From Candidatus Iainarchaeum sp. (GTDB taxonomy: Archaea > Iainarchaeota > Iainarchaeia > Iainarchaeales > 1-14-0-10-31-34), in the NCBI GenBank assembly GCA_040755695.1, contig JBFMAK010000001.1, forward strand, positions 384,637-448,636: a stretch of DNA of 64,000 nt. The letters are read 5' to 3'. Shown here one piece after another: positions 5,032-48,257 of this stretch. How positions within the stretch are numbered: position 1 is the stretch's first letter; each line of letters starts with the position of its first letter. Under the pieces are notes generated by a model, which ran no database searches, was not told the origin of the DNA, and saw only the letters and a program-made list of their open reading frames with translations. Position numbers and translations under genes: made by a program.

Positions 5032-6894
5032 TTAGAGTTCCTCCCTTATTTCTGTTGTTTGCACGTGCTTCTGTTGTTCGTACATTTTAATTATTTCTTT
5101 TTCTGTTGTGGCTTCCTCGGGCTTCCTGTCAACCCTAATCGAAATCATTCTCGGAAACCTCAAGGCGAAGCCTAATTCTTTTGTCTTGCCTGCAGTGTGA
5201 ACAGGGCTTTTAGTAATCTCGTCTGCTCTCACTTCAATGACATACTTTGGTTCAACCCAGAAGTCTGGCTCCAGTTCAGAATTAACTCTCGCAGGCTTGT
5301 GCGAAGCCTTTATTTTGCTCAGTATTTTCTCTAATTCAATCATTTTTTCTTCTGTCATTCCTGTTCCAATCTTTGCAATGCTCTTGAACTCGTCTTTTTT
5401 GTCATCGTACACTGCAGTGAGCAATGCGCCTAGGCCGAATTGGGTTCTCTTTCCTCTTCCCTTGTAGTATCCAATAATTACTGCGTCCACTGTGTCGCTT
5501 AATTCCCCTTTATAGGAACGCTTTAGTTTAATCCAGGCGAATTTTCTTGCTCCAGCAATGTATTTTGCGTTCAGGTCTTTTGCTATGATGCCTTCAAGGC
5601 CTCTCTGCACGCATTCCTCGAAAAAGGCATTGATTTTTTTTGGGTCGTCTGTTACAATTGATTCTGTAAGCTCTATTGTTTCGCCTTTCTTTATTATTTC
5701 TTCCAACAGCTTTCTTCTTTCTTTGAATGGCTCGTTCATGAAATTCTTTCCGTTAAGCATCATTACATCGAACACGAAAAGTTTTAATGGGAACTCCTTT
5801 GCCTTCTCCCCTATCTCGTATTTTCTTTTCCTTTGGATTGTCACCTGGAACGGAAAGAATTCTCCTGTCTCCTCGTTTACTGCAAGGGCTTCACCTTCTA
5901 TTACTGCGGCCTCTGCCTTCAACTGCTTTTTCACTCCTTCAACTATTTCAGGGAACATTTCTGTCATGTTCTCCTGCTGCCTTGAAAAAATAATTATTTT
6001 GTCTTTGTTTTTGTGCACAGCCAACCTAAATCCATCGTATTTTGCTTCTACAGCACATTTCCCTATTTTCTCCAAGATCTCTTCTGCTGAAGGCAGCCTT
6101 TCTGCTAAGGTCGGCCTTATTGGAATTCCAGGCTCAATTGAAATCTTCTCCAATCCACCTAACCCCTTTTCTTTTAGAATGCGTGCTATTTCGCCTAAAT
6201 CAGAATAAATATTGTATTTCTCTTCTATCCTTTCTCTTAAGGCAACCTTTATTCTCCTGTTCAATTCTTCATTCCATTCCTTTTCCTTTATTTTTTTGTC
6301 TTTCATTTGGGCTTCAATCCTTTTCACTAATTCCTTTTCCTTTTTTCCTTCCTCCACCAAGCTCAAGGCAAAGGAATCCATTATTGTTGGATCGCCAATC
6401 CCAAGCCTTAAATTTTCCAAGGGAATTCGCGCAATGAATTTTGCTTCCAGTGGAAGAGCAGAATTCAATAGTTCTGCCATAAGCTTCAATTTGAGTTCCT
6501 GACTTCCTGGGCCTTCTGCTTTAGCAATTTTCAATAAATTATCAAAAACTTTTTTCACGCTCAATTTCTCTTGAAATAAAGAAGACTGCTTTTTCTTTGC
6601 AACAAGGGCTTCTGCCACAAGGCCCAGATCGCCTTTCTCTTTGAACTGCTTTTCTATTTCATGCCTTGTGTAGCCTGAAGCCTTTGCAAGGGCATCCATC
6701 AACAGTTTTTCTCCTAAACCTGCCTCAACCTTTGCATAATTAGGCCCAAGCTGGCCTTGAGAAAGATAGACAACATTCTTTATGTTCTCCGAGTCAGTTT
6801 TACTGAATAATTCTGCAAGCAGGTCAGTCATCTTCAAGCGCTCTGAAGCCCTTTCAATCTTGTCAAAGTATTCAGCCAGCAATTCAAAATGCAT
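5032..6894 (-). CDS. lig: ATP-dependent DNA ligase
   Basis: Adenylation motif I KYDGFR is present. 620 aa. Domain order matches archaeal/eukaryotic ATP-dependent ligases. Confidence 0.9.
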   Translation of the reverse strand: MHFELLAEYFDKIERASERLKMTDLLAELFSKTDSENIKNVVYLSQGQLGPNYAKVEAGLGEKLLMDALAKASGYTRHEIEKQFKEKGDLGLVAEALVAKKKQSSLFQEKLSVKKVFDNLLKIAKAEGPGSQELKLKLMAELLNSALPLEAKFIARIPLENLRLGIGDPTIMDSFALSLVEEGKKEKELVKRIEAQMKDKKIKEKEWNEELNRRIKVALRERIEEKYNIYSDLGEIARILKEKGLGGLEKISIEPGIPIRPTLAERLPSAEEILEKIGKCAVEAKYDGFRLAVHKNKDKIIIFSRQQENMTEMFPEIVEGVKKQLKAEAAVIEGEALAVNEETGEFFPFQVTIQRKRKYEIGEKAKEFPLKLFVFDVMMLNGKNFMNEPFKERRKLLEEIIKKGETIELTESIVTDDPKKINAFFEECVQRGLEGIIAKDLNAKYIAGARKFAWIKLKRSYKGELSDTVDAVIIGYYKGRGKRTQFGLGALLTAVYDDKKDEFKSIAKIGTGMTEEKMIELEKILSKIKASHKPARVNSELEPDFWVEPKYVIEVRADEITKSPVHTAGKTKELGFALRFPRMISIRVDRKPEEATTEKEIIKMYEQQKHVQTTEIREEL

Positions 6895-6961: not shown

Positions 6962-7684
6962 ATGGCGAAAATAATTCTGGTCGTGAATGTTCATCCATCC
7001 GAAACAGCATTCACAGTGCCTTTGGCTACTTACTTAAAATCAAATCTAAAAAGAAGAGGGCACGAAGTAGAAATTATTGGGGTGCCGCCAAAAAAGACTA
7101 TTTTGTATCAAGTGCAGGAAGCCGCAAAAGCAGGAACTAAAATTCCTTATCATTCCATGTTTGAACCTTCAGATGAATTTATTGTGAAGTTAGCGTCACA
7201 AAATCCTAAGTCATATATTTTTGACATTCATTGTGGCCCTCATTATTATTTAAACAGAAATAACAAAAAAATCAAAAGAGTATCAGCTGGCCTTTTAGAT
7301 CCTAATAGTCCTGGTTATCCTCCTTTAAATAGGGACAAAAAAAATATTGAAATAACCCCTTACAGCTTTTATCCTCCAAATTATTTTTGTGTTGAGGCTA
7401 TCGCCGTATTTAAAGAAGCTCCAGAAAAACTAAAAGCATTATTAAAAAGCATTAAGTGTCAGGGTTTGATATTTAAAGACCCCGAACTTTGGTTTGGAAA
7501 AATTGTAGACTTGAAAACTACCAGAAAAGCAGGCTATTTGTCTGACACAATTGTCAGAAAAGTTGCACACCAAATAGACAGTTTAGTTCAGACAAGAGAA
7601 GGAAGATACAGGAAAATTAATCTGAGATTAAGAAGACTGCGCGATAAAAGAAAAATTAAGCGCCAGAAAAAATTCAGAATTTAA
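6962..7684 (+). CDS. hypothetical protein, possible zinc hydrolase (AstE/AspA/M14-like HxxE...H)
   Basis: Motifs NVHPSE (HxxE) and DIHCGPH. Highly basic C-terminus. Confidence 0.3.
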   Translation: MAKIILVVNVHPSETAFTVPLATYLKSNLKRRGHEVEIIGVPPKKTILYQVQEAAKAGTKIPYHSMFEPSDEFIVKLASQNPKSYIFDIHCGPHYYLNRNNKKIKRVSAGLLDPNSPGYPPLNRDKKNIEITPYSFYPPNYFCVEAIAVFKEAPEKLKALLKSIKCQGLIFKDPELWFGKIVDLKTTRKAGYLSDTIVRKVAHQIDSLVQTREGRYRKINLRLRRLRDKRKIKRQKKFRI

Positions 7685-8899
7685 TTGTCTTTAAGAAGCC
7701 ATTTCCACGCAGGCTTTACTGTTATTTTTTTGTTTTCTATTCTTAATTCATCTTCTTGGTCGTATGCCAGTATTAAGCCCTCCTTTAACTTGAATTTTTC
7801 CATTGCTTCCATTATTCCATTAATCTCTCTTTCTTTGTTGTCTTCATCAACTTTAAAGCACACCTGAATTGCCTTTGTAATTTTTTCTTTTTCTTTTACA
7901 AGGAAATTGCATTCGTTTTTTTCCTTAAAATAAAAAATATCATTATATTTTTTTCTTAATTGAATAAAAACCAAATTTTCAAGCATTCTTCCATTGTCTG
8001 CCGAGAAAGAAGCTGAATTAACAGTGGATAATCCATTGTCTATGGAGTAAACTTTTTTTGCACTGACTAATTGTTTTTTAAGTGAGTAATCAAATCTTGG
8101 AACTGTAAATAAAAGATAGCTGTCTTCAAAATAGGAAATAAATGAGATGGCAGTGTTTACTGAACCTAAGTTAAAGGTCTTTTTTAGGCTGTTGTAAGAA
8201 AATTCTTTGCCGACATTTGTAAGCAGGTATATAGCCATTTCCTTTACTGTTTTTAGGTTCTTTAATTTATATCTTACCATAATGTCTCTTGCAATTATAT
8301 CATTCAATAATTCTTGCAATATTTCAGATTTGTCGTATTTGAGATATTCAGGAAAGCCTCCTTTAATGAGATAACCTTCAAAAGAACTTAAATCAGCTTT
8401 TTTGCCAGTAAACGTCAAGAATTCCTTAAAAGAAAATGGAAAAAGTTCACAACGCAAATGTCTCCCGGTAAGTCTTGTTCCCAATTCTTTGCTAAGAAGA
8501 GATGCATTAGAACCAGTAATGACAACATATTTTTTTTTTATCTAGAATTGCCCTTACAAAAAGCTCCCATTTACCAACATTTTGAATCTCATCAAAAAAA
8601 TAATAATTACTTTTGCCGAATTCTTCCACAAAAACTTCATTAAGTTTTTGAAAATCTCTTACATCAAAATCAACAGTTCTAGGATCCTCAAAATTAAAAT
8701 AATATGACTTCTTTATTTTTTTCATTAACTGCCTTAATAAAGTGCTTTTCCCGCATCTTCTGGCCCCAGACATGACTAACGCAAAGGAGGCCCTTAAATC
8801 TATTTGTTTGAGTTTTTCTCGTTCTATTCCATAATCACTTTTCAAAATCTCGGTATTCTGTGTTTTAACTATGCTTCTTAAGGTTTCTTTCAACATCAT
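7681..8899 (-). pseudogene. AAA ATPase (AAA_14 + DUF4143 family) disrupted by homopolymer frameshift
   Basis: The N-terminal ORF (8507..8899) carries Walker A GARRCGKST and ..DEIQ. The C-terminal ORF (7681..8484) continues the family (GTRLTGR...ELFPFSFKEF). Frames differ at an A10 tract (T run 8530..8539). Removing one A gives ...DKKKYVVITGSNASLLSKELGTRLTG, matching the intact paralog at 53724..55025. Confidence 0.6.
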
Positions 8900-9320
8900 A
8901 ATAATATATGTTCAATATCAGTATATAAATCTTTTCATTACTAATGAAAACTTATGTTCATTTTAAATGAACAACTTTGCCGCACGTAAAAAATTAGCTT
9001 TTTTGCCTTTTACAAACAGTTATGTTATTCCCAACAATTACTTTAAAATGGGTTCGCATTAAATAATTCTATTGATTTAAAATGCAAAGTGAGCTACTTC
9101 CACTGCCAAAAACATGCTAATTCTCTTAATCCAAGCCTTTTCTCTTTTAAAAAAAGAGAAAAGTCTACGGTCTATCCAAAAGAGAAAAATAAATTTGTAA
9201 TTAATAATTCAATTATCAATAAAAACAATTGCAACGAATTAATTCTTACTTCAAAAGCGAAGCAAGTACTACCAAGCAAAGCGCAGGTAGTACACCGGCG
9301 TCAACTGACTGAACGGTTGA

Positions 9321-9502
9321 GGGGTTGTAGTCTAGCCTGGTCAGGACTCTGGCTTTGGGACGGACCCTTTTCTTTTTTAGAAAAAAAGAAAAGTGTTACG
9401 TTATCCCAAAAGAAAAAAGGGGTTAGTTACCCCAAAAAAGAAAGGGATTGTTTTTTGTCCGCAAGAAAGCCAGTAACGGGGGTTCAAATCCTCCCAACCC
9501 CA
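9321..9502 (+). tRNA. tRNA-Pro(TGG) with 108-nt intron at canonical 37/38 position (intron 9360..9467)
   Basis: Acceptor GGGGTTG/CAACCCC+A. D-arm GTCT-AGCCTGGTCA-GGAC. Anticodon stem CTGGC...GCCAG. Loop TT-TGG-G|intron|A. T-arm GGGGG-TTCAAAT-CCTCC. Intron ends are complementary (CGGAC/GTCCG), consistent with a BHB splice motif. Confidence 0.65.
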
Positions 9503-9576
9503 CTCGAACCATTAAATGGTTCAATATTACAGCAATTCAATAATGCACGTAGTGCCAGCTGCCAATAGCAGCTGTA

Positions 9577-9604
9577 GGAGGTATCGGAACCGCAAGGTTC
9601 TGAT
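9577..9604 (+). promoter_or_regulatory. Conserved 28-nt hairpin motif GGAGGTATCGGAACC-GCAA-GGTTCTGAT (copy 1 of 3)
   Basis: Palindrome GGAACC/GGTTCT with a GCAA loop, immediately upstream of tRNA-Ser. Near-identical copies at 17544 and 26338(-). Confidence 0.5.
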
Positions 9605-9606
9605 TT

Positions 9607-9776
9607 GCGGAGGTGGCGGAGTGGTCCAACGCACCAGCTTGGAGCCTGCCCCTTTTTCTTTTTAAAAAAAAGAAAAAGCGGCAAGTTGCCGGAAAAAGAA
9701 AAAGGTTTTGGTGGCCGGATAGCTGGCGAGCGCAAGCTCACGCGAGTTCGAATCTCGTCCTCCGCGTCCGCCCTTT
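9607..9776 (+). tRNA. tRNA-Ser(GGA), class II, with 76-nt intron (9645..9720)
   Basis: Acceptor GCGGAGG/CCTCCGC+G. Anticodon stem CCAGC...GCTGG. Loop TT-GGA-G|intron|A. Long variable arm CGAGCGCAAGCTCAC. T-arm GCGAG-TTCGAAT-CTCGT. The intron contains a palindrome plus mini-repeat copy. Confidence 0.6.
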
Positions 9777-9869
9777 TTCTTTCTTTCCAAAAGAAAGAAA
9801 AAGTGCAGGTTGCCCAAAAAGAAAGAAAGCGGCAAGTTGCCCAAAAGAAAAAAAATAAAGTTGCAGTTG

Positions 9870-10022
9870 GGGGGGGTAGTCTAGCTTGGTTAGGATTTCA
9901 GCTTGGGGTAAGCCCCTTTTCTTTTTTCCAAAAAGAAAAGGCCTTTGGGTTCAAAAGAAAAAACCTAAAAAAGGAAGGCTTCCAATATGCTGACGACCCG
10001 AGTTCGAATCTCGGCCCTCCCA
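9870..10022 (+). tRNA. tRNA-Pro(GGG) with 79-nt intron (9909..9987)
   Basis: Acceptor GGGGGGG/CCCTCCC+A (one G-U pair). D-arm GTCT-AGCTTGGTTA-GGAT. Anticodon stem TCAGC...GCTGA. Loop TT-GGG-G|intron|T. T-arm CCGAG-TTCGAAT-CTCGG. Intron ends pair as AAGCC/GGCTT. Confidence 0.6.
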
Positions 10023-10266
10023 CTCTGCCCCTTTCTTTCTTTTAAAAAAAGAAAGAAAGTGGTAAGTTGCCCCAAAGAAAGAAAAGAAAAGTGCAGGTTG
10101 CCCAAAAGAAAAATGGTGAAAGTTTACAGTCCATCCAAAAGAGAAAAAGCATAGGTTGCAATTTAATTCCAAAAGGAATTAAATGCACATTAAAACCGAA
10201 AGGTTTTAATCGTACCCCAAAGAAAGAAAATACAATTAAATATAAGTTTCAATTAAGGTTTTAATC

Positions 10267-11748
10267 ATGAAAGAAAAAGGCAGTGAAAAGGAAGAGAAGG
10301 TTACTTTCAATATTGACAAGGAAAAGAATTTCTCTGAGTGGTTCACTGAAATAATAAAGAGGGCTGAACTGGCTGACTTAAGGTATAACGTGAAAGGCTT
10401 TATTGTATTCCAGCCTTGGAGTGTTATTTCAATGGAATTAATGTATGCTGAATTGGAAAGGATTCTGAGAATGAAAGGCCATAAGCCTTACTGGTATCCT
10501 GCAGTAATACCTGAAAGCAATTTCAAATTAGAGAAAGAGCACGTTGAAGGATTTGCCCCTCAAGTTTTCTGGGTTACAGAGACAGGCGCAGGAGAAAAAT
10601 TGGAGGAAAGGCTTGCTTTAAGGCCTACTTCAGAAACTGCATTCTACCAAATGTTTGCTTTATGGATTAGGAGTTACAAAGACCTGCCTTTCAAGTCATA
10701 CCAGAGAGCCCAGGTCTTCAGGTACGAGACAAAAGCCACAAGGCCTTTCCTTAGGAGCAGGGAAATTTATTGGATTGAAAGCCATAATGCTTTTGCCTCA
10801 AGAGAGGATTCAATTAAACAAGTGAAAGAAGACATGCAGTCAACAAAGGAATTATTGTATGATTTCCTCTGTGTGCCATTCATTTTCTTTGAGAGGCCTC
10901 AGTGGGACAAGTTTGCAGGGGCAGAATCAACTTATGCTGCTGATTCCTTAATGCCTGACGGAAGGGTAGTGCAATTGCCTTCAACCCATTTGTTGGGGCA
11001 GAACTTCTCCAAGCCATTCAATATTACTTTCAAGGACGAGAAAGGTTCTGATCAGTACGTGTGGAATACGTGCTATGGGCCTGCTGTGAGCAGGATTTTT
11101 GCTGTAATGATGGCAATACACGGAGACAATAACGGCTTGGTTTTTCCTTTTACTGTTTCTCCAGTGCAGGTAATAATAATTCCAATTTTTGATGAAAAGA
11201 ATAAAGAAAAAGTTTTGGCTGAAGCAGAAAAGGGCAGGAAGGAATTGAGTGAATTGGATTTGAGGGCTGAAATAGATGCAGGAGAAGAAAGGCTGGGGGA
11301 CAAGCTTTACTTCTGGGAGATGAAAGGCATTCCCCTGAGAATTGAATTAGGGGAAAAGGAATTAAAGGGGAAGAAGGCCCTCTTGTTCAGGAGAGATACA
11401 AAAAAGAAGGAATTGGTTGCATTGAATGAATTGAAGAAAAAGATTCTGGCTGAAGGAAGGAATTTGAATGAAAGCCTTAGAAAGAAAGCAGAGAAATTCT
11501 TACAGGAATCAATTGTTGAAGCAAAAAGTATTGAAGAAGCAAAGAAACTTGTGCAGAAAGGAAAGATTGCAAGAGTGGAATTCTGCTCTATTGGGTTGGA
11601 TGCAGTTAAATGTGCTGAAGCAATAGAAAAGGAAGCGCAGGCCTCAGTTAGAGGGAAAAGAATTGACTTGGAAGAGAAAACCAAAGGCAATTGCATTGTG
11701 TGCGGCAAAAAGGCTTCTGTTATAGTGTACATTGCAAGGTCTTATTAA
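10267..11748 (+). CDS. proS: prolyl-tRNA synthetase, archaeal/eukaryotic type
   Basis: Class II aaRS motifs are present (FRYETKATRPFLRSREIYWIESH..., GxG motif 3). 493 aa with a C-terminal zinc-binding CxxC...CxxC. Lies directly downstream of two tRNA-Pro genes. Confidence 0.85.
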   Translation: MKEKGSEKEEKVTFNIDKEKNFSEWFTEIIKRAELADLRYNVKGFIVFQPWSVISMELMYAELERILRMKGHKPYWYPAVIPESNFKLEKEHVEGFAPQVFWVTETGAGEKLEERLALRPTSETAFYQMFALWIRSYKDLPFKSYQRAQVFRYETKATRPFLRSREIYWIESHNAFASREDSIKQVKEDMQSTKELLYDFLCVPFIFFERPQWDKFAGAESTYAADSLMPDGRVVQLPSTHLLGQNFSKPFNITFKDEKGSDQYVWNTCYGPAVSRIFAVMMAIHGDNNGLVFPFTVSPVQVIIIPIFDEKNKEKVLAEAEKGRKELSELDLRAEIDAGEERLGDKLYFWEMKGIPLRIELGEKELKGKKALLFRRDTKKKELVALNELKKKILAEGRNLNESLRKKAEKFLQESIVEAKSIEEAKKLVQKGKIARVEFCSIGLDAVKCAEAIEKEAQASVRGKRIDLEEKTKGNCIVCGKKASVIVYIARSY

Positions 11749-17543: not shown

Positions 17544-17570
17544 GGAGGTATCGGAACCACAGGTTCTGAT
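17544..17570 (+). promoter_or_regulatory. Conserved hairpin motif GGAGGTATCGGAACC-ACA-GGTTCTGAT (copy 2 of 3)
   Basis: Lies in the divergent intergenic region between 17344..17529(-) and 17628..18941(+). Confidence 0.5.
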
Positions 17571-25650: not shown

Positions 25651-26337
25651 TTATTTCTCTTTCACGTTCCAGCTCTTCCTGTGCTCTCTGTCTTTGGATT
25701 CTTCTCGGGCCAGCTTTGCAATAACGCTTGCAGCGCCTATTACTGGCTCTAAGTCGTCGCCTTTCACTATGAATTCAACGTGCTTTAATGTCCCATTCAG
25801 TCTGCTGCCGTCAGCCTTAACCTTTGCCTTTACCCCTAATTCATCAAAGAGCAGTACAAGATTGTTTATTATTCTGACTTCAATTTCATTCAAGTTCAGT
25901 CCATTATTCCTTAACTGGTCTATGAGCCGGGAATTCAAAGAAACAGTTGCTACTGCAAGGGCGTTCCCTGAAACAATTTCAGCTTTCTCTTTTAGGTTGC
26001 CTGTCTTCTTGCTGTCCCTCAACTCTCTTAACTTATTGCTGTCGCCCAAAACAAAGCTTACAACAAAAGAGCCAAAGCTTTCCCCTCTTCCAGCCTCATC
26101 AATGCCTAAAACCAGTTCTTCTTCCAAACCCATCCTCTGCAAGATTTCCTCAGTGACCTTCTTGCAGTCATTGCCCTGTACTACAAGCTTTCCTGAAGAG
26201 TACAAGGTTACAGTGCAATTGCCTGCCTTGCACCTCAATTCCTCGAAGGCATTCTTTGTCTCCACCTGAGGGAATTCCCTGAGGATTTCAATCAATTGCC
26301 TTTTCTGCTTTGAACCAAAGTTAAGAACCTTCTCCAT
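25651..26337 (-). CDS. rnhB: ribonuclease HII-family protein with ~75-aa N-terminal extension
   Basis: GIDEAGRG catalytic motif, DSK, and GDD...VIGAASVIAK C-terminal motif. Confidence 0.55.
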   Translation of the reverse strand: MEKVLNFGSKQKRQLIEILREFPQVETKNAFEELRCKAGNCTVTLYSSGKLVVQGNDCKKVTEEILQRMGLEEELVLGIDEAGRGESFGSFVVSFVLGDSNKLRELRDSKKTGNLKEKAEIVSGNALAVATVSLNSRLIDQLRNNGLNLNEIEVRIINNLVLLFDELGVKAKVKADGSRLNGTLKHVEFIVKGDDLEPVIGAASVIAKLAREESKDREHRKSWNVKEK

Positions 26338-26364
26338 ATCAGAACCTGCGGTTCCGATACCTCC
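26338..26364 (-). promoter_or_regulatory. Conserved hairpin motif GGAGGTATCGGAACC-GCA-GGTTCTGAT (copy 3 of 3), abutting the rnhB start codon
   Basis: The minus-strand sequence reads ...GGGAGGTATCGGAACCGCAGGTTCTGAT-ATG. A degenerate partial copy (GGAGGCTCGGAACCATACTTCC) lies about 17 nt further upstream at 26381..26403. Confidence 0.5.
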
Positions 26365-26480
26365 CTTAATTTTATTTTATGGGAAGTATGGTTCCGAGCC
26401 TCCTTTTTCCATTTTAATAGCATATTTATTATTAAAGAAAATGGTTATATATTGTACTGAAAAAAAAATTAATTCTTTAG

Positions 26481-34437: not shown

Positions 34438-35820
34438 ATGCTACCACAATTTGTAAATAGAGAAGAAGAATTAAAATTTCTAGAAAGGCTTCATAAGAAA
34501 AGAGGCTTCAAACTATTTGTCCTTTATGGGAGAAGAAGAATTGGAAAAACGGACTTATTAAAACATTTTTTGGAGAACAAAAAAGGGGTTTATATTCTTG
34601 CCACAGAAGAAAATTTGACGGAGAATATAAAAGAATTCAAAAACAAATTTTACGAGTTGACAGGCAAGGATTATTTTCTGAAAATTGAAGAAAAAAGCTT
34701 CTATGATTTGTTCAAGTATTTAGCAGAGGAAATTAAAAACAAGAAGGCTGTTATAGTTATAGACGAATTCCCTTATATGCTAAATTTAAATAAAGGCTTG
34801 CTTTCGACATTTCAGAAAATCACAGATGAATTATTCAGAAACAGCGAGATAATGTTAGTCTTGTGCGGTTCTTCTTTATCGATAATGGAAAATGATGTTT
34901 TGGGTTACAGGAGCCCTCTTTATGGGAGGGATATTAATTACTGGAAGCTTCTGCCTTTTGATTTCAGGGTAGTTTATGATTTAGTTGGCAGAATAGAAAA
35001 GGCCATGAAGGTTTATTTCGTTTTTGGAAATGTTCCATATTACCTTAAGTTCTACAACAAAAAAGAAGATTTGTTTGGGAACATAAAAAATAATTTTTTG
35101 GTAAAGGGATTAAATTTGTATGATGAGCCTTTAGTCCTGCTAAGACAAGAGTTTAAGGAGTCTAGGACATACAGGCTGATTTTGAAATACATCTCTTTAG
35201 GATATAAGACTATAGGCAAGTTATGTTCTGTTACAGGAATGGATAAAAGCAATATTATGAAATATCTTTCGACCCTTGAAGAAACAAATATTATAAAGCA
35301 CATTCTACCTTTCGGCATGAAGAGAAAAGGCTATTATGAGATTATTGATCCTTTCTTTAGGTTTTGGTTTAAGTTTGTTTATCCAAATAAAGACAAGCTT
35401 GAAATAGGGAATATTAAAGACGTTGAAGAACCCATAAAGAAAGAGATAAATTCTATTTTTGGGATATCTTTTGAATACTTAATTGAAGATTTAATCAATC
35501 ATAAATTTTTTGTAGAGTTTTCTGTGTTTTCAAAGGTTTATAAATGGTGGCATAAAGACATAGAAATTGACATTATTGCTCTAAATGAGCAAAGCAAAGA
35601 AATAATTTTTGTGGAATGCAAATGGCAGGAAAAAGTTAATGCGGAAAAGATTGTAAAAGAATTGGCTGAAAAGTCAATGCATGTTAACTGGCATAACAAT
35701 GAAAGAAAGGAATGCTATGCAGTATTTGCAAAAAGCTTCAGTAAAAAAATCAGAAATCATGAAAACAAAAAAGTTTATTGCTTTGGCTTAAAGGACATTG
35801 AAAGGATTCTCAAGAGATAG
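34438..35820 (+). CDS. archaeal ATPase family protein (PF01637-like AAA + DUF234)
   Basis: FVNREEELKFLE...LYGRRRIGKTDLLKHF (Walker A). DExx box VIVIDEFPYM. Confidence 0.55.
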   Translation: MLPQFVNREEELKFLERLHKKRGFKLFVLYGRRRIGKTDLLKHFLENKKGVYILATEENLTENIKEFKNKFYELTGKDYFLKIEEKSFYDLFKYLAEEIKNKKAVIVIDEFPYMLNLNKGLLSTFQKITDELFRNSEIMLVLCGSSLSIMENDVLGYRSPLYGRDINYWKLLPFDFRVVYDLVGRIEKAMKVYFVFGNVPYYLKFYNKKEDLFGNIKNNFLVKGLNLYDEPLVLLRQEFKESRTYRLILKYISLGYKTIGKLCSVTGMDKSNIMKYLSTLEETNIIKHILPFGMKRKGYYEIIDPFFRFWFKFVYPNKDKLEIGNIKDVEEPIKKEINSIFGISFEYLIEDLINHKFFVEFSVFSKVYKWWHKDIEIDIIALNEQSKEIIFVECKWQEKVNAEKIVKELAEKSMHVNWHNNERKECYAVFAKSFSKKIRNHENKKVYCFGLKDIERILKR

Positions 35821-45007: not shown

Positions 45008-46243
45008 TCAAAGCATGGACAAGATTAGTGAAACAGAGGCAATTATCAGGCCGCCTGAAATGATCCAACACATTATATTCATTTTTGTTCCGTTAACATA
45101 AGGTCCCATCAATTTCTTGTTGTTGATGAGATAGAGCATTAAAATCAATACAATTGGAAGCAGGATTCCGTTCAATACCTGAGACCAGTACATTATTGAA
45201 ATCAAGGGAATGTTTGGAATTAATATCAACCCAGCTCCAACCAAAATCATTGCAGTGAACAAGGAATAGAATTGTGGGGCCTCCCTGATTTTCTTGTTCA
45301 CCCCTGACTCAAAGCCGAAGCCCTCGCAAACATAATAAGCTGTGGCCAAAGGAAGGATTGCAGCAGCAAAAACTGAGGCAGCAAGAAGGCCTAAAGCAAA
45401 CAGGGAAGAAGCATAATTGCCTGCAAGAGGCCCTAAAGCCTTTGCTGCATTCTCTGCTGAATCAATCCTTATTCCATGAGGATGCAGTACAGTTGCAGTC
45501 GTCACAATAATGAAAAGCATTATAATGACAGTAACAATTGAACCCAAAATTACGTCCATTCTAGAGAAATGCAATTCCTCTGGCTTAATGCCTTTCTCTG
45601 CGATTGAGGCCTGAAGATAGAACTGCATCCAAGGCGCAATAGTTGCCCCAATCAATCCTACAATAATCATCAAATAAGAGGAATCAATTTGAATTGATGG
45701 GTTTACTACAGCCTTTCCAACTTCAAGCCAGTCAGGCTGAATCATCAGCCCTGCAATAATATAAGCAAAATAGAATAATACAGCAAAAAGAAATGCCTTC
45801 TCAACATTCTTGTATGTTCCCCTTACAATCAAAAGCCAGACAAATAATGCCCCCAAAGGAACCGCAATAAATTTTGTTATTCCAAACAATTCCGAGGCAG
45901 CAGCAATCCCAGCGAATTCAGCTACAGTATTAGTAAGATTAGTGAAAAACAATGCTGCCATAACAAAAAAAGTTATTCTTAAGCCGAAGTTCTCCCTTAT
46001 CAAATCAGCAAGGCCTTTCCCTGTGACAATGCCCATCCTTGCATTCATTTCCTGGACCACAACAAGAATTACCGCAATAGGAATCATTGTCCACAACAAG
46101 GAGTAACCGAAATGCGCTCCGGCAATGCTGTAAGTCGCAATGCCCCCAGCATCATTGTCCACAGCGCTTGTAATAATTCCAGGGCCCAAAACACCAAAAA
46201 AAATCAGCAATTGAATTTTAAACTTCCTAATTTTTTCAAGCAA
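45008..46243 (-). CDS. mntH: NRAMP-family divalent metal (Mn2+/Fe2+) transporter
   Basis: GPGIITSAVDNDAGGIATYS (DPGN-type motif) and 11-12 TM helices. 411 aa. Confidence 0.8.
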   Translation of the reverse strand: MLEKIRKFKIQLLIFFGVLGPGIITSAVDNDAGGIATYSIAGAHFGYSLLWTMIPIAVILVVVQEMNARMGIVTGKGLADLIRENFGLRITFFVMAALFFTNLTNTVAEFAGIAAASELFGITKFIAVPLGALFVWLLIVRGTYKNVEKAFLFAVLFYFAYIIAGLMIQPDWLEVGKAVVNPSIQIDSSYLMIIVGLIGATIAPWMQFYLQASIAEKGIKPEELHFSRMDVILGSIVTVIIMLFIIVTTATVLHPHGIRIDSAENAAKALGPLAGNYASSLFALGLLAASVFAAAILPLATAYYVCEGFGFESGVNKKIREAPQFYSLFTAMILVGAGLILIPNIPLISIMYWSQVLNGILLPIVLILMLYLINNKKLMGPYVNGTKMNIMCWIISGGLIIASVSLILSML

Positions 46244-47537
46244 TCTGCTCTCCCCCTCTCTTTGCCTGCTTAATCCTTCTCCTAATCTTTTGCTTCCTAA
46301 ACTTGTGCGGAATCATTTTATTGAATACGTCATCTATTGTAATTACCCCGGCAAGTTTTCCTTCAGCATCAGTTACAGGCAGGGAAAGCAGCCTGTACTT
46401 GCTGAAAATCTTTGCAACTTCTTCAAATTTTGAATTAGTGTGAACGCTGATAATTTTGTCGTTCATCAATTCAAATGCCTTCCTTGAAGGCTTTGCAATG
46501 ACAAGATTCCTTAAAGGCAGAACGCCAAGCAATTTCTCCCTTTCATCCACAACATAAATATGGGAGAACTCCTGGGGCTCACGGACAGTCCTCCTGACGT
46601 GGTCTAACACCTCTTTTACACTAAAATTCTTGGGCACAACAACAAAATTGAAGGTCATAATTTTTCCTGCAGACTTTCTGGGCATTTCAAGCATTTTCCT
46701 TATTTCCCTTTGTGAGCCCTCATCAAGCATGCCGAGAATTTCATTCCCTTTCTCCCTTGAAACAAAGCCGAAGAACTGGACTATTTCATCAGCCTCCATT
46801 TCCTGCACAATCTTTGCAATATTATGAGGCTTCATTTCATGGACAACAGATTTCAACACCTCAGGCTTTGACTCTGCAAGAGTGTCTGCTGCAATGCTTT
46901 CATCCAGAGAATTAAAAACCAAAGCCCTTTCCCTGTGGGACAGTTCAGTAAGAAAATCAGCGATGTCTGCAGGATGGCTCTTTGAAATCTTCGCCCTAGA
47001 AATATTCAATTGAAGGTTCTGTGAAGGAGTAACATTCAAAGGCTGGACATTGCCCCAAGGCAGAATTTTTTCACTCATCCTGTAAGTTAAAGGCAAAAAC
47101 AGTTTCTCCAAACCAAGGCGCCTCAAGATCGCCCTGTTGCCTATGTCAACGCTTGAAACGCAAAGCTTCCCCCCGACCTTGGAAAGGATTACATCATTCA
47201 CCCTCACAACCTTTAAGCCGTCAACATCAATTAATTGCTTGTCCAAAAGAATCTCAGAAACCAGAAGGTCTGAGTCATTCAGAGCCTCAAAGTCTATTTC
47301 ATTCAATGGCTTGTTCAAATAAATGCAGTACTCTATTGATTCAATGAATCTCCAGTTAACCTTCATTTTTTTGCCGTTTGTCTTTACAGCAAGCGCAATC
47401 ACCTCAGCCAATTCCTGCCCGTCAGCAATAACCAGGTCATTTAATACTCCAAGCTTTTTTTCATTGCAGTCAAAAACAGTCTTTCCCTGCAGGTGACTGA
47501 AATAAATCGCTTTAGGCATTCCCATCACAAAAAACAA
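46236..47537 (-). CDS. soluble MgtE-N domain + CBS-pair protein with N-terminal PRC-barrel-like domain (no transmembrane MgtE domain)
   Basis: MgtE_N-like acidic helical region (ADIADFLTELSHRERALVFNSLD...) and two CBS motifs. Ends in a basic tail with no TM segment. Overlaps the mntH start by 8 nt. Confidence 0.55.
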   Translation of the reverse strand: MFFVMGMPKAIYFSHLQGKTVFDCNEKKLGVLNDLVIADGQELAEVIALAVKTNGKKMKVNWRFIESIEYCIYLNKPLNEIDFEALNDSDLLVSEILLDKQLIDVDGLKVVRVNDVILSKVGGKLCVSSVDIGNRAILRRLGLEKLFLPLTYRMSEKILPWGNVQPLNVTPSQNLQLNISRAKISKSHPADIADFLTELSHRERALVFNSLDESIAADTLAESKPEVLKSVVHEMKPHNIAKIVQEMEADEIVQFFGFVSREKGNEILGMLDEGSQREIRKMLEMPRKSAGKIMTFNFVVVPKNFSVKEVLDHVRRTVREPQEFSHIYVVDEREKLLGVLPLRNLVIAKPSRKAFELMNDKIISVHTNSKFEEVAKIFSKYRLLSLPVTDAEGKLAGVITIDDVFNKMIPHKFRKQKIRRRIKQAKRGGEQIA

Positions 47538-47581: not shown

Positions 47582-47652
47582 TTCCCTCTGCCCCTTTCTC
47601 TTTTTAAAAAAAAGAGAAAGTGGTAAGTTGCCCCAAAGAGAAAAAGAAAGGT
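47582..47652 (+). repeat. Solo copy of the palindrome + mini-repeat element seen in the tRNA cluster
   Basis: ctctgcccctttctctttttaaaaaaaagagaaagtggtaagttgccccaaagagaaaaagaaagg is nearly identical to 10016..10088, including the CTCTGCCCC tRNA-trailer-like left end. Confidence 0.65.
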
Positions 47653-47690: not shown

Positions 47691-48257
47691 ATGGATAAAA
47701 GGTTTTCTTATAAACATAGAAAAAAAGGAAATGTTGTAAGGCCCATAATCCCGATTAAAGTTGCCGGAAAGGGATTTAGGCCGGAATGGCTTATAGGGCA
47801 AGGGAGAATTGATTTAGGGAGGAGAAAATGGAAAAACCAAAGAATTAGGCTTGGACTTAAGAGAAGGAGCTTCGACCCCAAAGAAAGAATTATTATAAGT
47901 AGGGGTAGAAGAATAACCACGACAAGAAGGCTCCTCGGGCACATGGAAAGAATCGAAAGAATTCAGGCTGAAATAGCAGAAGCAAACAGAAAACATTTTT
48001 TTGAAAAGTTTGACCTCACAGTGGATGACTTGAAAACGAGAAAAAATAAAATTCCTAATTTTTCATTAAATGATGCAATTGAGGAATCAAAAAAATGCAT
48101 AGGGCTTTCAGAGAAAGCCTTAATAGTTGCAAAAGCAAAAAACGACAAAATATTAAAGAGGGACGCCAAAATCAGGTTAAGGCAAGCAAAGAAAGCCCTC
48201 AAGCATGCCATGAAAATATTAAATCAGAGAAAAGGGCAGGCAAAGAAAGCGGGCTGA
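47691..48257 (+). CDS. highly basic protein, possibly ribosomal protein L13e-like
   Basis: MDKRFSYKHRKKGNVVRPIIPIKVAGKGFRPEW..RRKWKN... Weak resemblance to eL13 (RPIVR...GRGFSLEEL). K/R-rich throughout. Confidence 0.3.
   Translation: MDKRFSYKHRKKGNVVRPIIPIKVAGKGFRPEWLIGQGRIDLGRRKWKNQRIRLGLKRRSFDPKERIIISRGRRITTTRRLLGHMERIERIQAEIAEANRKHFFEKFDLTVDDLKTRKNKIPNFSLNDAIEESKKCIGLSEKALIVAKAKNDKILKRDAKIRLRQAKKALKHAMKILNQRKGQAKKAG

Follow-up and report, generated by a model that had tools for sequence, protein, structure and literature searches.

Three intron-containing tRNA genes upstream of the prolyl-tRNA synthetase gene

The window analysed here is a 64-kb stretch (64,000 nucleotides) from the genome of a Diapherotrites (DPANN) archaeon. 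Positions 9128-10135 of the window hold three archaeal tRNA genes, each interrupted by an intron (Table 1), and this cluster sits just upstream of the prolyl-tRNA synthetase (ProRS) gene. The encoded ProRS protein matches that of an NCBI "Candidatus Diapherotrites archaeon" MAG with 100% identity. The repeats which fill the same stretch are the bodies of these introns and the spacers between the tRNAs. In an earlier note the repeats had been described as a non-CRISPR array. This array is not free-standing, and the description has to be replaced by that of three tRNA genes with canonical bulge-helix-bulge (BHB) introns. The repeat units themselves were found where they had been reported, with at least 12 units of the "GC box + A-run" type packed between 9164 and 10230.

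After splicing in silico the three genes give clean cloverleafs of 74 nt for Pro(tgg), 84 nt for Ser(gga) and 74 nt for Pro(ggg). There is one intron per gene, always at the canonical position 37/38, both in the three genes of the window and in the tRNA-Leu(UAG) gene of a related genome (L014). All four introns are bounded by a 3-4-3 BHB in which the central helix is fully paired, the bulges have 3 nt and the inner helix comprises 5-6 bp (hBHBh'). The CTGCCCC stretch, previously described as C-rich and tRNA-trailer-like, is in fact the 5' arm of the intron inner helix. Splicing, that is a cut by the endonuclease followed by ligation to a mature tRNA and a circular intron, is predicted for all three genes. 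No gene for a splicing endonuclease or an RNA ligase was noticed among the scanned ORFs, which cover most of the window, and these genes are presumably located elsewhere in the genome.

Two of the three genes, those for tRNA-Pro(UGG) and tRNA-Pro(GGG), are overlooked by default tRNA finders, so that the genome would be scored as having neither of them in this window. For tRNA-Pro(UGG), no call was returned by ARAGORN in its default mode and none by Rfam at the gathering threshold. A TTTAAA box at about -28 is present in front of the three intron-less tRNAs of the window and absent from all three intron-containing ones.

Table 1. Positions in the window of the tRNA genes, of the module copies and of the genes next to them
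Feature	Position	Strand	Parts	Context and evidence
Module A	9134-9189	+	hairpin 9137-9163; GC unit TCTACGGTCTATCC 9164-9177; mirrored A-run 9178-9189	upstream of tRNA cluster; TATA-like TAAATTT immediately downstream
tRNA-Pro(UGG)	9321-9502	+	exon 1 9321-9359; intron 9360-9467 (108 nt, position 37/38); exon 2 9468-9502; BHB: central helix UUUG/CAAG, bulges GGA/AAA, inner helix CGGAC/GUCCG	ARAGORN with introns allowed
Module B	9365-9447	+	hairpin 9367-9393; unit 9394-9407; mirrored A-run 9408-9419; unit GGGGTTAGTTACCCC 9419-9433; A-run 9434-9447	in tRNA-Pro(UGG) intron
tRNA-Ser(GGA)	9607-9766	+	exon 1 9607-9644; intron 9645-9720 (76 nt, 37/38); exon 2 9721-9766; BHB: central helix UUGG/CCGG, bulges AGC/AUA, inner helix CUGCC/GGUGG	Rfam tRNA 43.5 bits with 79-nt insert; ARAGORN with introns allowed
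Module C	9646-9705	+	CTGCCCC 9646-9652; hairpin 9652-9678; GC unit CGGCAAGTTGCCGG 9679-9692; mirrored A-run 9692-9703	nearly entire tRNA-Ser intron
Module D	9768-9855	+	hairpin 9773-9803; unit TGCAGGTTGCCC 9804-9815; mirrored A-run 9816-9829; unit CGGCAAGTTGCCC 9830-9842; A-run 9843-9855	spacer between tRNA-Ser and tRNA-Pro(GGG); starts 2 nt past tRNA-Ser 3' end
tRNA-Pro(GGG)	9870-10022	+	exon 1 9870-9908; intron 9909-9987 (79 nt, 37/38); exon 2 9988-10022; BHB: central helix UUGG/CCAA, bulges GGU/UAU, inner helix AAGCC/GGCUU	ARAGORN with introns allowed
Module E	9912-9978	+	hairpin 9915-9941; unit 9942-9952; A-run 9953-9963 (mirror pattern 4,6); A-run 9967-9978	diverged copy in tRNA-Pro(GGG) intron
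Array F	10023-10230	+	CTCTGCCCC 10023-10031; hairpin 10031-10059; GC units 10060-10073, 10092-10103, 10123-10136, 10150-10170; A-runs 10074-10091, 10104-10113, 10137-10149, 10219-10230; then TTAAATATAA	from first base past tRNA-Pro(GGG) to ProRS promoter
ProRS gene	ATG at 10267
MgtE-like gene	46236-47537	-		divergent neighbour of module G
Solo module G	47586-47651	+	CTCTGCCCC 47586-47594; hairpin 47594-47620; unit TGGTAAGTTGCCCC 47621-47634; mirrored A-run 47635-47651	adjoins TATA-like TTTAAATTTAAAG; nhmmer E = 1.4e-17
188-aa basic ORFan	47691-48257	+		divergent neighbour of module G; protein search matched only itself

Architecture of the module and its mirror rule

The repeated module is about 60 nt long and consists of six parts in a fixed order: P (CTGCCC[C]), a Y-run of 11-14 T with 1-2 C, a loop of 3 nt, an R-run which is the exact reverse complement of the Y-run, the mini-palindrome P'P (GYGGYAAG-TTGCCC, with the GC unit in the form GYGGYAAGTTGCCC), and a second R-run which is the mirror image of the first. 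The Y-run and the first R-run create perfect hairpins that can be written C(Y)11-13 / 3-nt loop / (R)11-13G, six of them in or beside the tRNA cluster and a seventh in the solo copy. The AT palindromes noticed earlier are thus real: perfect hairpins with arms of at least 12 bp (12-14 bp) occur seven times in the window and in none of 30 dinucleotide-matched simulations. Three of these six hairpins lie inside tRNA introns just past the 5' splice site, and two lie behind a tRNA 3' end. The GC units are enriched as well. GYRGKTGCCCMAAAGA has five matches (0.5 expected) and CCCMAAAGARAR seven (0.55 expected), with no shuffle as high in either case, while GGCAAGTTGCC occurs exactly twice (9680 and 9831) and GGYAAGTTGCC four times. 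The modules share 73-92% pairwise identity, and each of the seven window copies is matched by a profile derived from the modules, with E = 1e-11 to 1e-17.

The positions of C and G within the runs differ from copy to copy (seven patterns), and despite this the hairpins of all ten modules considered, with those of the relatives included, are perfectly Watson-Crick paired. In each of the ten, moreover, reading the second A-run in parallel with the T-run gives complementary bases at 11-13 of 11-13 positions, and when the seven distinct patterns are re-paired, the fraction doing equally well is 1/5040. An independent scanner detected the mirrored third domain, with at most one mismatch and a constant gap of 11-13 nt, in nine of ten long hairpins. 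The reversed copy in the tRNA-Trp intron of another relative (L002) follows the mirror rule too (5,4 / 5,4).

As far as sequence can tell, a second A-run mirroring the first is the rule of an intrastrand triplex, and the third domain of the module follows the A.A-T / G.G-C (or T.A-T / C.G-C) register of the intrastrand triplex motif. We infer that the mirror rule reflects a putative intrastrand triple helix. Secondary-structure programs predict the hairpin only; the z-scores of folding, as RNA or as DNA, range from -3.6 to -4.5. Loop 1 has 3 nt and loop 2 has 11-13 nt, and the latter is above the limit of the published finder ITxF, which requires 1-6 nt for both loops (PMC4666352). The purine-motif triplex has been reported not to form in RNA (PMC4666352), hence in the orientation of the window introns the mirror rule cannot act via the intron RNA. 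A search of the literature returned nothing relevant on triple helices in archaeal tRNA introns.

Alternative Watson-Crick pairing of the T-run with the second A-run was also considered and rejected, as it needs a direct copy and the mirror permits only 9-11 bp in a shifted register. Nonetheless, in the two symmetric single-module introns (Ser and Leu) the distal pairing is the predicted minimum-energy fold. The fourth base of the GC unit is T in five units, which keeps a G-U pair on the transcribed strand only and points to RNA pairing rather than to a DNA dyad.

Copies in relatives and turnover of the module

Only about a dozen copies of the module are known. Besides the window copies, the profile recovers those in two related genomes (L013 and L014), one at positions 6363-6421 of a third (L015) and one in the L002 tRNA-Trp intron. 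Its matches extend to the introns of tRNA-Pro(UGG), tRNA-Ser(GGA), tRNA-Pro(GGG) (weakly), tRNA-Leu(UAG) in L014 and tRNA-Trp in L002, the last of which contains two copies in opposite orientations. In Ser(GGA) of the window and in Leu(UAG) of L014, the intron body is essentially a single module. The expectation that copies always abut tRNA 3' ends does not hold: three of the window copies and the L014 copy, which begins there too, are placed at the 5' end of an intron, the L015 copy follows a protein gene and the solo copy stands between divergent genes. In the close family, all ten copies share the direction of neighbouring transcription.

The solo composite noted near 47.6 kb upstream of a basic-protein gene is real and shares 86% identity with the copy that follows tRNA-Pro(GGG). 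It is no product of assembly chimerism, because the orthologous locus of the related metagenomic genome L013 carries the same element between flanks conserved on both sides; one unit is present there in the window and three in L013. The L015 copy lies 1 nt past the stop codon of a GT2 (glycosyltransferase) gene, and the orthologous spacers of L001, L016 and L002 are empty. Judged from these sequences, it is a clear insertion polymorphism. The same copy is 88-90% identical to the copies of the window and of L013, whereas the ProRS genes are only 69% identical. Turnover is visible in the introns as well: the orthologue of tRNA-Pro(GGG) is intron-less in six relatives and has an intron of about 21 nt in a seventh, and tRNA-Trp is intron-less in the window and intron-bearing in relatives. 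Comparison of filled and empty sites revealed no target-site duplication, and there were no exact terminal inverted repeats. Scanning of GTDB representative genomes with GYGGYAAGTTGCCCMAAAGA gave 10 singletons in unrelated bacteria, approximately the number due to chance, and no archaeon; the scanned viral contigs contained no match to the module.

Several known classes of repeats were rejected. The units are not CRISPR, as had been stated before: they are heterogeneous, are interrupted by tRNA exons and have no unique spacers, the sole Rfam CRISPR match scores 20.9 against a threshold of 36 bits, and no cas domains were detected in the scanned ORFs of the window. Rfam at E ≤ 1 gave only tRNAs and chance microRNA-like matches on the hairpins, and a C/D-box or other known intron RNA was rejected on these grounds. 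A replication origin with ORB-like boxes is contradicted by units which are all direct and lie inside tRNA genes, and no orc1/cdc6 gene is found among the scanned ORFs. LAGLIDADG-like ORFs are located beside tRNA-Pro in L015 and L017, though the neighbouring 240-aa ORF of the window is unrelated, and a link to homing endonucleases was not retained; the scanned ORFs, covering most of the window, include no transposase, integrase or homing endonuclease. The earlier idea of an undescribed, MITE-like or tRNA-associated mini-element was borne out in part. The element is dispersed, tRNA-associated and present in relatives, and no description of it was found in the literature searched, but the hallmarks of a MITE were not found: the ends, which would have to be inverted, are mirror-related, and the scanned ORFs contain no transposase domain, such as would be expected with a REP/BIME element.

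Origin and possible role of the module

It seems reasonably likely, on the strength of these copies and their distribution, that the module is a dispersed, structure-constrained and probably mobile mini-element which builds or colonises BHB introns. We infer that it is mobile rather than merely conserved and that it seeds or remodels introns. According to the proposed mechanism, the module would be copied or inserted where extra sequence is harmless, i.e. in tRNA introns, in spacers behind tRNA and protein genes and in promoter-distal intergenic DNA; within a tRNA gene it would be tolerated because it is spliced out. The P end of the module would pair with GG(U)GG past the last A-run to form the inner helix of the BHB, and four intron bases would pair with tRNA positions 32-35, after which the archaeal splicing endonuclease could remove the entire module and the ligase rejoin the exons. 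A triplex could adopt the purine motif in DNA on the strand in which the T-run comes first, with the opposite strand suited to the pyrimidine U.A-U motif, and the triple helix may be the selected target or may make the element prone to recombination. Against mobility it can be said that strong selection on some function could equally give high conservation, and that the uniform orientation of copies with transcription need not be expected of a neutral mobile element. A further point against the reading is that T-runs of 4-6 within tRNA genes could in principle terminate archaeal transcription. A far-reaching version, which at present has to be considered rather unlikely, would be a self-contained, putatively triplex-forming mobile mini-element that creates new BHB introns. 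The CTGCC end and a downstream GG(U)GG would then supply the inner helix, copies landing in an anticodon loop, or recombining into one, would be spliceable after minor adjustment, and a triplex or H-DNA formed by the non-template strand in highly transcribed tRNA genes would drive the spreading recombination.

Other readings of the same repeats give the module a role in transcription or in RNA. The module could be a terminator-promoter cassette, in which the T-run ends upstream transcription and the A-run serves as a BRE before a TATA box and restarts it. In the extreme, the three genes would be "cis-split" tRNAs whose halves are made separately and joined via the CUGCC/GGUGG helix and pairing of the U-run with the A-run, as in the split tRNAs of Nanoarchaeum equitans. 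The T-run does start 0-9 nt past two tRNA 3' ends and 1 nt past a protein stop codon, four non-intronic arrays end directly at a TATA-like box (the one given for module A in Table 1, TTAAATATAA before ProRS in array F, and TTTAAATTTAAAG in module G and in L013), and the three tRNAs here are without the box of the intron-less ones. The single-module introns of Ser and Leu are moreover symmetric in run pattern, so that full pairing between the U-run and the last A-run is possible. Nevertheless this reading is unlikely, given that the intronic copies have no TATA box past the last A-run, the solo copy has a divergent gene start on either side and nothing to terminate, the mirrored third domain is unneeded and a simple terminator scan is not enriched (3 against 2.0 expected). 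Long T-runs are also common in the tRNA introns of all sampled relatives, including the essential-looking Trp and Pro(UGG) genes in each locus, and consequently they are not efficient terminators there. Archaeal tRNA introns are circularised and some of them carry C/D-box guide RNAs. A functional intron RNA, stable after excision and circularisation, could act as a guide or decoy, or a triple helix might protect the circle or the precursor. The G-U-preserving changes of the GC unit favour the transcribed strand, and the reversed copies in the tRNA-Trp introns of relatives, with the order U-run/U-run/A-run, can form U.A-U triples in RNA (PMC4666352). Such a role is quite doubtful all the same, as there is no Rfam match and no C/D or H/ACA box, the module is also found in untranscribed-looking DNA upstream of promoters, and the window introns have the purine-motif orientation discussed above.

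A protein could be the reader of the repeats instead. The GC unit is an 11-bp dyad, the spacing of centres is about 21 and 26-31 bp, several arrays adjoin promoters, and every dyad centre is flanked by runs whose G/C positions are arranged symmetrically around it, which amounts to the mirror rule; the minor groove is blind to A-T versus T-A. These would be phased sites for a dimeric DNA-binding regulator or chromatin protein controlling tRNA-Pro/ProRS and a few promoters, with the GGCAAGTTGCC dyad read in the major groove and the symmetric A/T-versus-G/C flank pattern via the minor groove. The probability of such a system appears very low: a promoter-operator role does not explain a module which builds introns in four different tRNAs and three genomes, with both orientations in one intron, the changes from GGCA to GGUA retain pairing only as G-U on one strand, perfect hairpins of 12-14 bp far exceed typical operator half-sites, and no candidate regulator is adjacent. 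The least favoured explanation, and a highly improbable one, is neutral low complexity, the outcome of polymerase slippage and local duplications in a genome rich in A/T and in lysine codons, with neither selected structure nor mobility. Runs of at least 10 nt are indeed very common in the window (226 purine and 208 pyrimidine), and unit number differs between orthologous loci as slippage predicts. Slippage and duplication, however, yield direct or inverted copies and never mirror copies, whereas the mirror rule is obeyed by all ten modules with their seven distinct patterns. The long perfect hairpins missing from the simulations, and the high identity of modules between genomes whose ProRS genes have diverged, speak in the same direction.

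The origin of archaeal BHB intron gain is a long-standing question, and the repeats give a hint of how archaeal tRNA introns arise and spread. With the module as intron body in several tRNAs, free intergenic copies and a filled/empty site, the proposal that introns come from small mobile or recombining elements becomes directly testable in one lineage. If the reading as an intron-creating mobile element is true, the module would be the first visible donor of archaeal tRNA intron gain, seen both inside and outside tRNA genes. Synthetic intramolecular triplexes are designed by the same strict hairpin-plus-mirror rule, a pattern which copying cannot produce, and a natural, covarying archaeal example inside highly transcribed genes would be useful for studying whether structures of this kind arise in vivo and are of any consequence there. 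On the practical side, DPANN completeness estimates and claims of "missing tRNAs" are vulnerable to intron-containing tRNA genes overlooked in this way.

Among the nearest known systems are the introns of Thermoproteales, where similar introns common to different tRNAs have been described as "large-scale intron transposition" (Fujishima et al. 2010, as presented in PMC4033280). Homologous introns are likewise shared here across tRNA species (Ser-GGA, Leu-UAG, Pro-UGG, Pro-GGG and Trp), and the canonical 37/38 position, the 3-4-3 BHB and gain and loss between relatives are features in common with those families and with archaeal BHB tRNA introns generally. Unlike the Thermoproteales families, the introns belong to a DPANN (Diapherotrites) host, occupy the canonical position only and are long (75-108 nt), their structured module is also found outside tRNA genes (in trailers, past a protein gene and between divergent genes), and one site is polymorphic, filled versus empty. 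The split tRNAs of N. equitans, also from a DPANN-type host, resemble the present genes in the complementary GC-rich stretches on either side of the splice sites, which make a helix beside the BHB; here, in contrast, the halves are adjacent and colinear, at a distance of 76-108 nt, with no recognisable promoter or TATA box between them.

Outside tRNA genes, the module can be compared with the dispersed intrastrand-triplex repeats of bacteria, PIT, BoxC and TMECO (Hoyne et al. 2000; Holder et al. 2015, PMC4666352). Like these, it carries on a single strand three domains of homopurine or homopyrimidine sequence, arranged as in class II (a pyrimidine domain, then a purine and a reverse-Hoogsteen one) and as in class IV when the other strand is read, and it is short, dispersed, highly conserved, mostly intergenic, tied to local rearrangement and without an associated transposase. 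It differs from them in being A/T-rich and not G/C-rich, in stems of 11-13 nt instead of 9, in a third domain which is a strict mirror distinguishable from a direct repeat, and in its archaeal host and its location in tRNA introns; the second loop, which in TMECO has 3 nt, folds here into a GC mini-hairpin of its own. With REP/BIME and MITEs the module shares small size, palindromic structure, repetition, a mostly extragenic position often at gene 3' ends, variable copy number and tandem clusters, but it lacks exact terminal inverted repeats, target-site duplication and a nearby RAYT or other transposase, and a mirrored third domain is foreign to both. Its two A-runs are a homopurine mirror repeat as in H-DNA, with the difference that 12-14 nt of structured spacer separate the halves and an inverted copy of the run comes before them, so that a cruciform, H-DNA and an intrastrand triplex are all conceivable structures for this DNA.

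Intron-bearing tRNA genes among the repeats

Reading of the region 8700-10600 confirmed the repeats which the earlier note had placed at 9128-10135, but not a free-standing array, as three intron-bearing tRNA genes stand between them, their halves interspersed among the repeats (for example GGGGTTGTAGTCTAGCCTGGTCAGGAC and GGGGGTTCAAATCCTCCCAACCCCA). Default ARAGORN reported just three tRNAs, all intron-less and elsewhere in the window (TTTAAA box at about -28, plain T-run trailers, no module). Rfam at its gathering threshold added one tRNA, at 9607-9766 with an insert of 79 nt, and intron-permitting ARAGORN gave three genes, 9321-9503, 9606-9769 and 9869-10023. With splice sites set by the bulge-helix-bulge (BHB) rule, the anticodon stem is unbroken in all three, four intron bases pair with positions 32-35 (UUUG/CAAG in Pro(UGG), UUGG/CCGG in Ser(GGA), UUGG/CCAA in Pro(GGG)) and the splice sites fall inside two 3-nt bulges followed by an inner helix of 5 bp. 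Products spliced in silico were identified as Pro(tgg), Ser(gga) and Pro(ggg). Two ORFs overlapping the three genes, 9089-9568 and 9605-10045, were rejected as spurious. All three intron-bearing tRNAs were missed by default ARAGORN and both tRNA-Pro genes by Rfam at the gathering threshold; Pro(UGG) and Pro(GGG) tRNAs would probably be scored absent by automated annotation of the MAG.

The repeats share a module that opens with P (CTGCCC or CTGCCCC, less distinct in some copies). Next come a Y-run of 11-14 T plus 1-2 C and, across a loop of 3 nt, its exact reverse complement, R1; a GC unit of 12-14 nt (GYGGYAAG + TTGCCC) then leads on to another A-run, R2. Perfect hairpins whose arms reach at least 12 bp occur seven times in the window, six of them in the cluster and the seventh at 47594-47620, and zero times in 30 dinucleotide-matched simulations; unit motifs are about tenfold more frequent than expected, and the module folds 3.6-4.5 SD better than shuffles, as RNA or DNA. 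The 5' half of the GC unit is predicted to pair with P, lengthening the hairpin to about 20 bp, or alternatively with its own 3' half as a mini-hairpin, GGYA-AGU-UGCC. Y is U in five GC units, the G-U pair being retained on the module strand only. Extra repeats of GC unit and A-run number two in D, at least four in F and three in L013, a metagenomic locus. Copies B, C and E begin 1-8 nt downstream of the 5' splice site, and the inner helix thereby takes its 5' arm from P or from the local counterpart of P. The earlier note asked whether copies always abut tRNA 3' ends; among the seven this is true of D and F alone, B, C and E being intronic and G lying between protein genes.

Module copies, tRNA genes and copies of the second element (window positions unless a locus is named)
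Feature	Position	Y-run / R2 pattern	Site or intron
Module A	9134-9189	4,1,4 / 4,1,4	upstream of tRNA cluster
Module B	9365-9447	4,6 / 4,6	inside tRNA intron
Module C	9646-9705	5,5 / 5,5	inside tRNA intron
Module D	9768-9855	5,3,3 / 5,3,3	starts 2 nt past tRNA-Ser 3' end
Module E	9912-9978	4,6 / 4,6	inside tRNA intron
Module F	10023-10230	3,3,4 / 3,3,4	starts 0 nt past tRNA-Pro(GGG) 3' end
Module G	47586-47651	3,1,5 / 3,1,5	alone, between starts of MgtE-like gene (-) and 188-aa basic ORFan (+)
Module L013		3,3,4 / 3,3,4	
Module L014		3,4,3 / 3,4,3	
Module L015	L015:6363-6421	3,3,4 / 3,3,4	1 nt past GT2 glycosyltransferase stop codon
tRNA-Pro(UGG)	9321-9502		intron 9360-9467, 108 nt (BHB rule)
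tRNA-Ser(GGA)	9607-9766		intron 9645-9720, 76 nt (BHB rule)
tRNA-Pro(GGG)	9870-10022		intron 9909-9987, 79 nt (BHB rule)
Second element	9575-9601 (-)		ends 5 nt before tRNA-Ser
Second element	17544-17569 (-)		
Second element	26339-26364 (+)		abuts start codon of RNase HII-like gene 25651-26337
Second element, degenerate	~26385-26410		
Second element	L015:5515-5540 (+)		immediately past tRNA-Trp

Several further features surround the cluster. Just upstream, an AAA_14 + DUF4143 ATPase gene (7681-8899, minus strand) is apparently split into ORFs 7681-8484 and 8507-8899 and is probably a pseudogene; intact paralogs lie at 53724-55025 and 34438-35820, the latter of ATPase_2/DUF234 architecture. The entire three-tRNA cluster is flanked by a 30-nt direct repeat, AAAGTYTACRGTCYATCCAAAAGAGAAAAA (9160-9189 vs 10119-10148, 27/30 identical), which may have been left by duplication or recombination, or may represent an att-like pair. 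The GC-rich sequences ahead of tRNA-Pro(UGG) (9255-9320) and between tRNA-Pro and tRNA-Ser (9503-9575) are small hairpins (GTACTACC...GGTAGTAC; GAACCATT-AA-ATGGTTC; CAGCTGC-caata-GCAGCTG) with no match in Rfam, and like hairpins (GTACG...CGTACTG, CAGCT...AGCTG) fill tRNA trailers and introns of the related loci L016, L018 and L019. The unit YRTARGTTGCAATTTAATTCC is common to the array upstream of the ProRS gene (10150-10184) and that of L013 (196-217); the hairpin at 10150-10184, ATTTAATTCC-AAAA-GGAATTAAAT, matches CRISPR-DR25 below threshold, at 20.9 vs 36 bits, a match judged to be due to chance. A second dispersed element, TCAGAACCTGCGGTTCCGATACCTCC, consists of a hairpin, GAACC/GGTTC, and then CGATACCTCC; three copies were observed at up to 3 mismatches vs 0.05 expected. 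It resembles the 16S rRNA 3' end (GAACCUGCGGUU...GAU.ACCUCC), its opposite strand reading as GGAGGT (Shine-Dalgarno-like) plus the hairpin. Of all loci fetched, L015 alone has both this element and the full A/T module in common with the window genome.

Copies in related genomes

The gene adjoining the cluster, 10267-11748, encodes ProRS, 100% identical to an NCBI 'Candidatus Diapherotrites archaeon' MAG protein (next best match 69%); the window genome was not found among GTDB representatives. Scanning metagenomes with AAAGYGGYAAGTTGCCCMAAAGA yielded two matches, both in JGI Ga0315289. The first, L013, is orthologous to the 47.6-kb locus, with both flanks conserved, 80% identity overall, and a hairpin with three units vs one in the window; the assembly chimerism considered for the solo copy is thereby ruled out, the copy is genuine and unit number is variable. 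The second, L014, is a tRNA-Leu(UAG) gene; its intron (75 nt, position 37/38) is a single module between the BHB nucleotides. The 188-aa protein downstream of G (47691-48257, plus strand) is without a Pfam match and found only itself among 5.8 billion proteins; its L013 ortholog (~280-572) shares the N-terminal ~80 residues, is much shorter and has no ATG at the corresponding position.

Long-intron tRNAs are also present in eight loci fetched around more distant ProRS genes (64-66% protein identity). The tRNA-Trp intron of L002 starts with CTGCC-TTTTTGGAAAAA-AAA-GGCAAGTTGCC-AAAAAC and ends with a second module, reversed; the reversed form, GGCAACTTGCC-T6-7...A5-6-GGCAG, also lies in tRNA-Trp introns of L001, L015 and L019. 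The tRNA-Pro trailer of L019 includes GGCAAGTTGCC-AAAAC, the tRNA-Pro(UGG) intron of L020 starts with CCTGCC-TTTTT-AG-AAAAG, and relatives' introns and trailers in general are mini-hairpins spaced by A-runs. The search for copies in relatives that the earlier note proposed succeeded (L013, L014, L015, the L002 tRNA-Trp intron), and about a dozen are known in total. Intron content varies: tRNA-Trp is intron-less in the window and intron-bearing in relatives, and the tRNA-Pro(GGG) intron is absent in six relatives and ~21 nt long in L018.

A module profile matched L015:6363-6421 (E = 1e-11), which reads ACTGCCC-TTTCTTTCTTTT-CC-AAAAAGAAAGAAAG-TGTAAGTTAGCC-AAAGAAAGAAAAGG. Orthologous GT2/GT4 spacers in L001, L016 and L002 are 35-72 nt long and without module, protein ends being conserved on both sides, and the L015 copy is an insertion polymorphism. 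Its identity is 88% to array F and 90% to L013, against 69% between the ProRS genes of the L015 and window genomes; comparison of filled and empty spacers revealed no target-site duplication.

tRNA-Pro genes lie near ProRS throughout the family (window 9321-11748; L001, L002, L015-L020). Pro(GGG) precedes ProRS by 0.6-1.4 kb in six relatives and by 6.5 kb in L020; in L002 it follows ProRS by ~4 kb, on the opposite strand. Pro(UGG) follows ProRS by ~3.6-9 kb in six relatives (five times on the opposite strand) and precedes it in L017 and L002. In L002 it does so directly, as the only tRNA separating the DNA ligase gene from ProRS, and in the window both tRNA-Pro genes lie just upstream of ProRS. 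ORFs with weak LAGLIDADG_3 matches adjoin tRNA-Pro genes in L015 (7645-8676) and L017 (8740-9432), and the window's 240-aa ORF 6962-7684 showed no relation to them.

The mirror rule and rival readings

R2 is not a copy of R1 but its mirror. When the T's before each C of the Y-run and the A's before each G of R2 are counted from the CCC prefix (see the table), the two match at all positions (11-13 of 11-13) and the R1 pattern is reversed, in 10/10 modules; among 5040 re-pairings of the seven distinct patterns, the true pairing alone is perfect throughout. An independent scanner, seeking a Y-R hairpin and then the mirror of its purine arm within 25 nt, found it in 9/10 long hairpins, the gap being constant at 11-13 nt and mismatches numbering 1 at most; the exception, E, is mismatched at its two terminal G's only. 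The reversed module of the L002 tRNA-Trp intron follows the rule (TTTTTCTTTT...TTTTCTTTTT-ttct-AAAAAGAAAA), and the orthologous hairpins of G and L013 differ (3,1,5 vs 3,3,4), each fitting its own downstream A-run. To our knowledge, polymerase copies are direct or inverted, never mirror, hence the rule speaks for selection on structure or on a symmetric DNA reader.

Slippage or low-complexity sequence could produce neither mirror copies nor conservation across genomes and is highly improbable. An array of protein-binding sites would account for the dyad and its symmetric flanks; residence in introns of several tRNAs and genomes in both orientations is left unaccounted for, as are the G-U changes, and this reading is very unlikely. 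It is also unlikely that a terminator-promoter cassette or cis-split tRNA is involved: the T-run does directly follow gene ends and a TATA-like box ends four arrays, but intronic copies have no TATA box, T-runs are frequent in apparently essential introns of all relatives, solo copy G lies between divergent gene starts, and the mirror rule is unexplained. A functional RNA borne by the intron is quite unlikely, being without known family or box, and the window orientation is the one unable to form a triplex as RNA.

Judged from sequence, the mirror rule is the exact register of a putative intramolecular triplex. The module strand would have the class II register (pyrimidine, purine, reverse-Hoogsteen; A.A-T and G.G-C triples) and the opposite strand class IV (Hoogsteen, pyrimidine, purine; T.A-T and C+.G-C triples), and the GC mini-hairpin would be the turn at the stem base. 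It is suggested that a DNA triplex may be the thing conserved, or may promote recombination.

Proposed working and known systems

The tRNA genes, their BHB geometry, the common module, its non-tRNA copies, their turnover and the covariation are established. The module would be a small element copied into harmless sites. Within tRNA genes it would be harmless because the end of P and a downstream GG(U)GG would form the BHB inner helix, so that the splicing endonuclease would remove it; the excised intron may then form a circle, as it does in other archaea. Pro(UGG) and Trp introns have long been present in the family, an argument for insertion into existing introns; Ser and Leu introns each amount to little more than one module, an argument for introns created by the module. 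The T-run comes first along neighbouring transcription in 10/10 close-family copies, which points to a transcription-linked or replication-linked process. The putative triplex might form on the non-template strand of heavily transcribed tRNA genes, or alternatively the module might adopt a cruciform or H-DNA in supercoiled DNA. No mobilising enzyme was found among the window ORFs scanned, which cover most of the window.

Dispersed bacterial repeats of the intrastrand-triplex kind (PIT, BoxC, TMECO) are associated with unstable genomes, and no transposase is known for them (PMC4666352). According to the same paper, RNA forms pyrimidine-motif triplexes but not purine-motif ones; its triplex finder limits loops to 1-6 nt, so the modules would escape it. 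BHB introns, shared intron families and intrastrand-triplex repeats are each already known; new is their combination in a DPANN lineage, where one triplex-patterned module occurs both as tRNA introns and as free, polymorphic intergenic copies.
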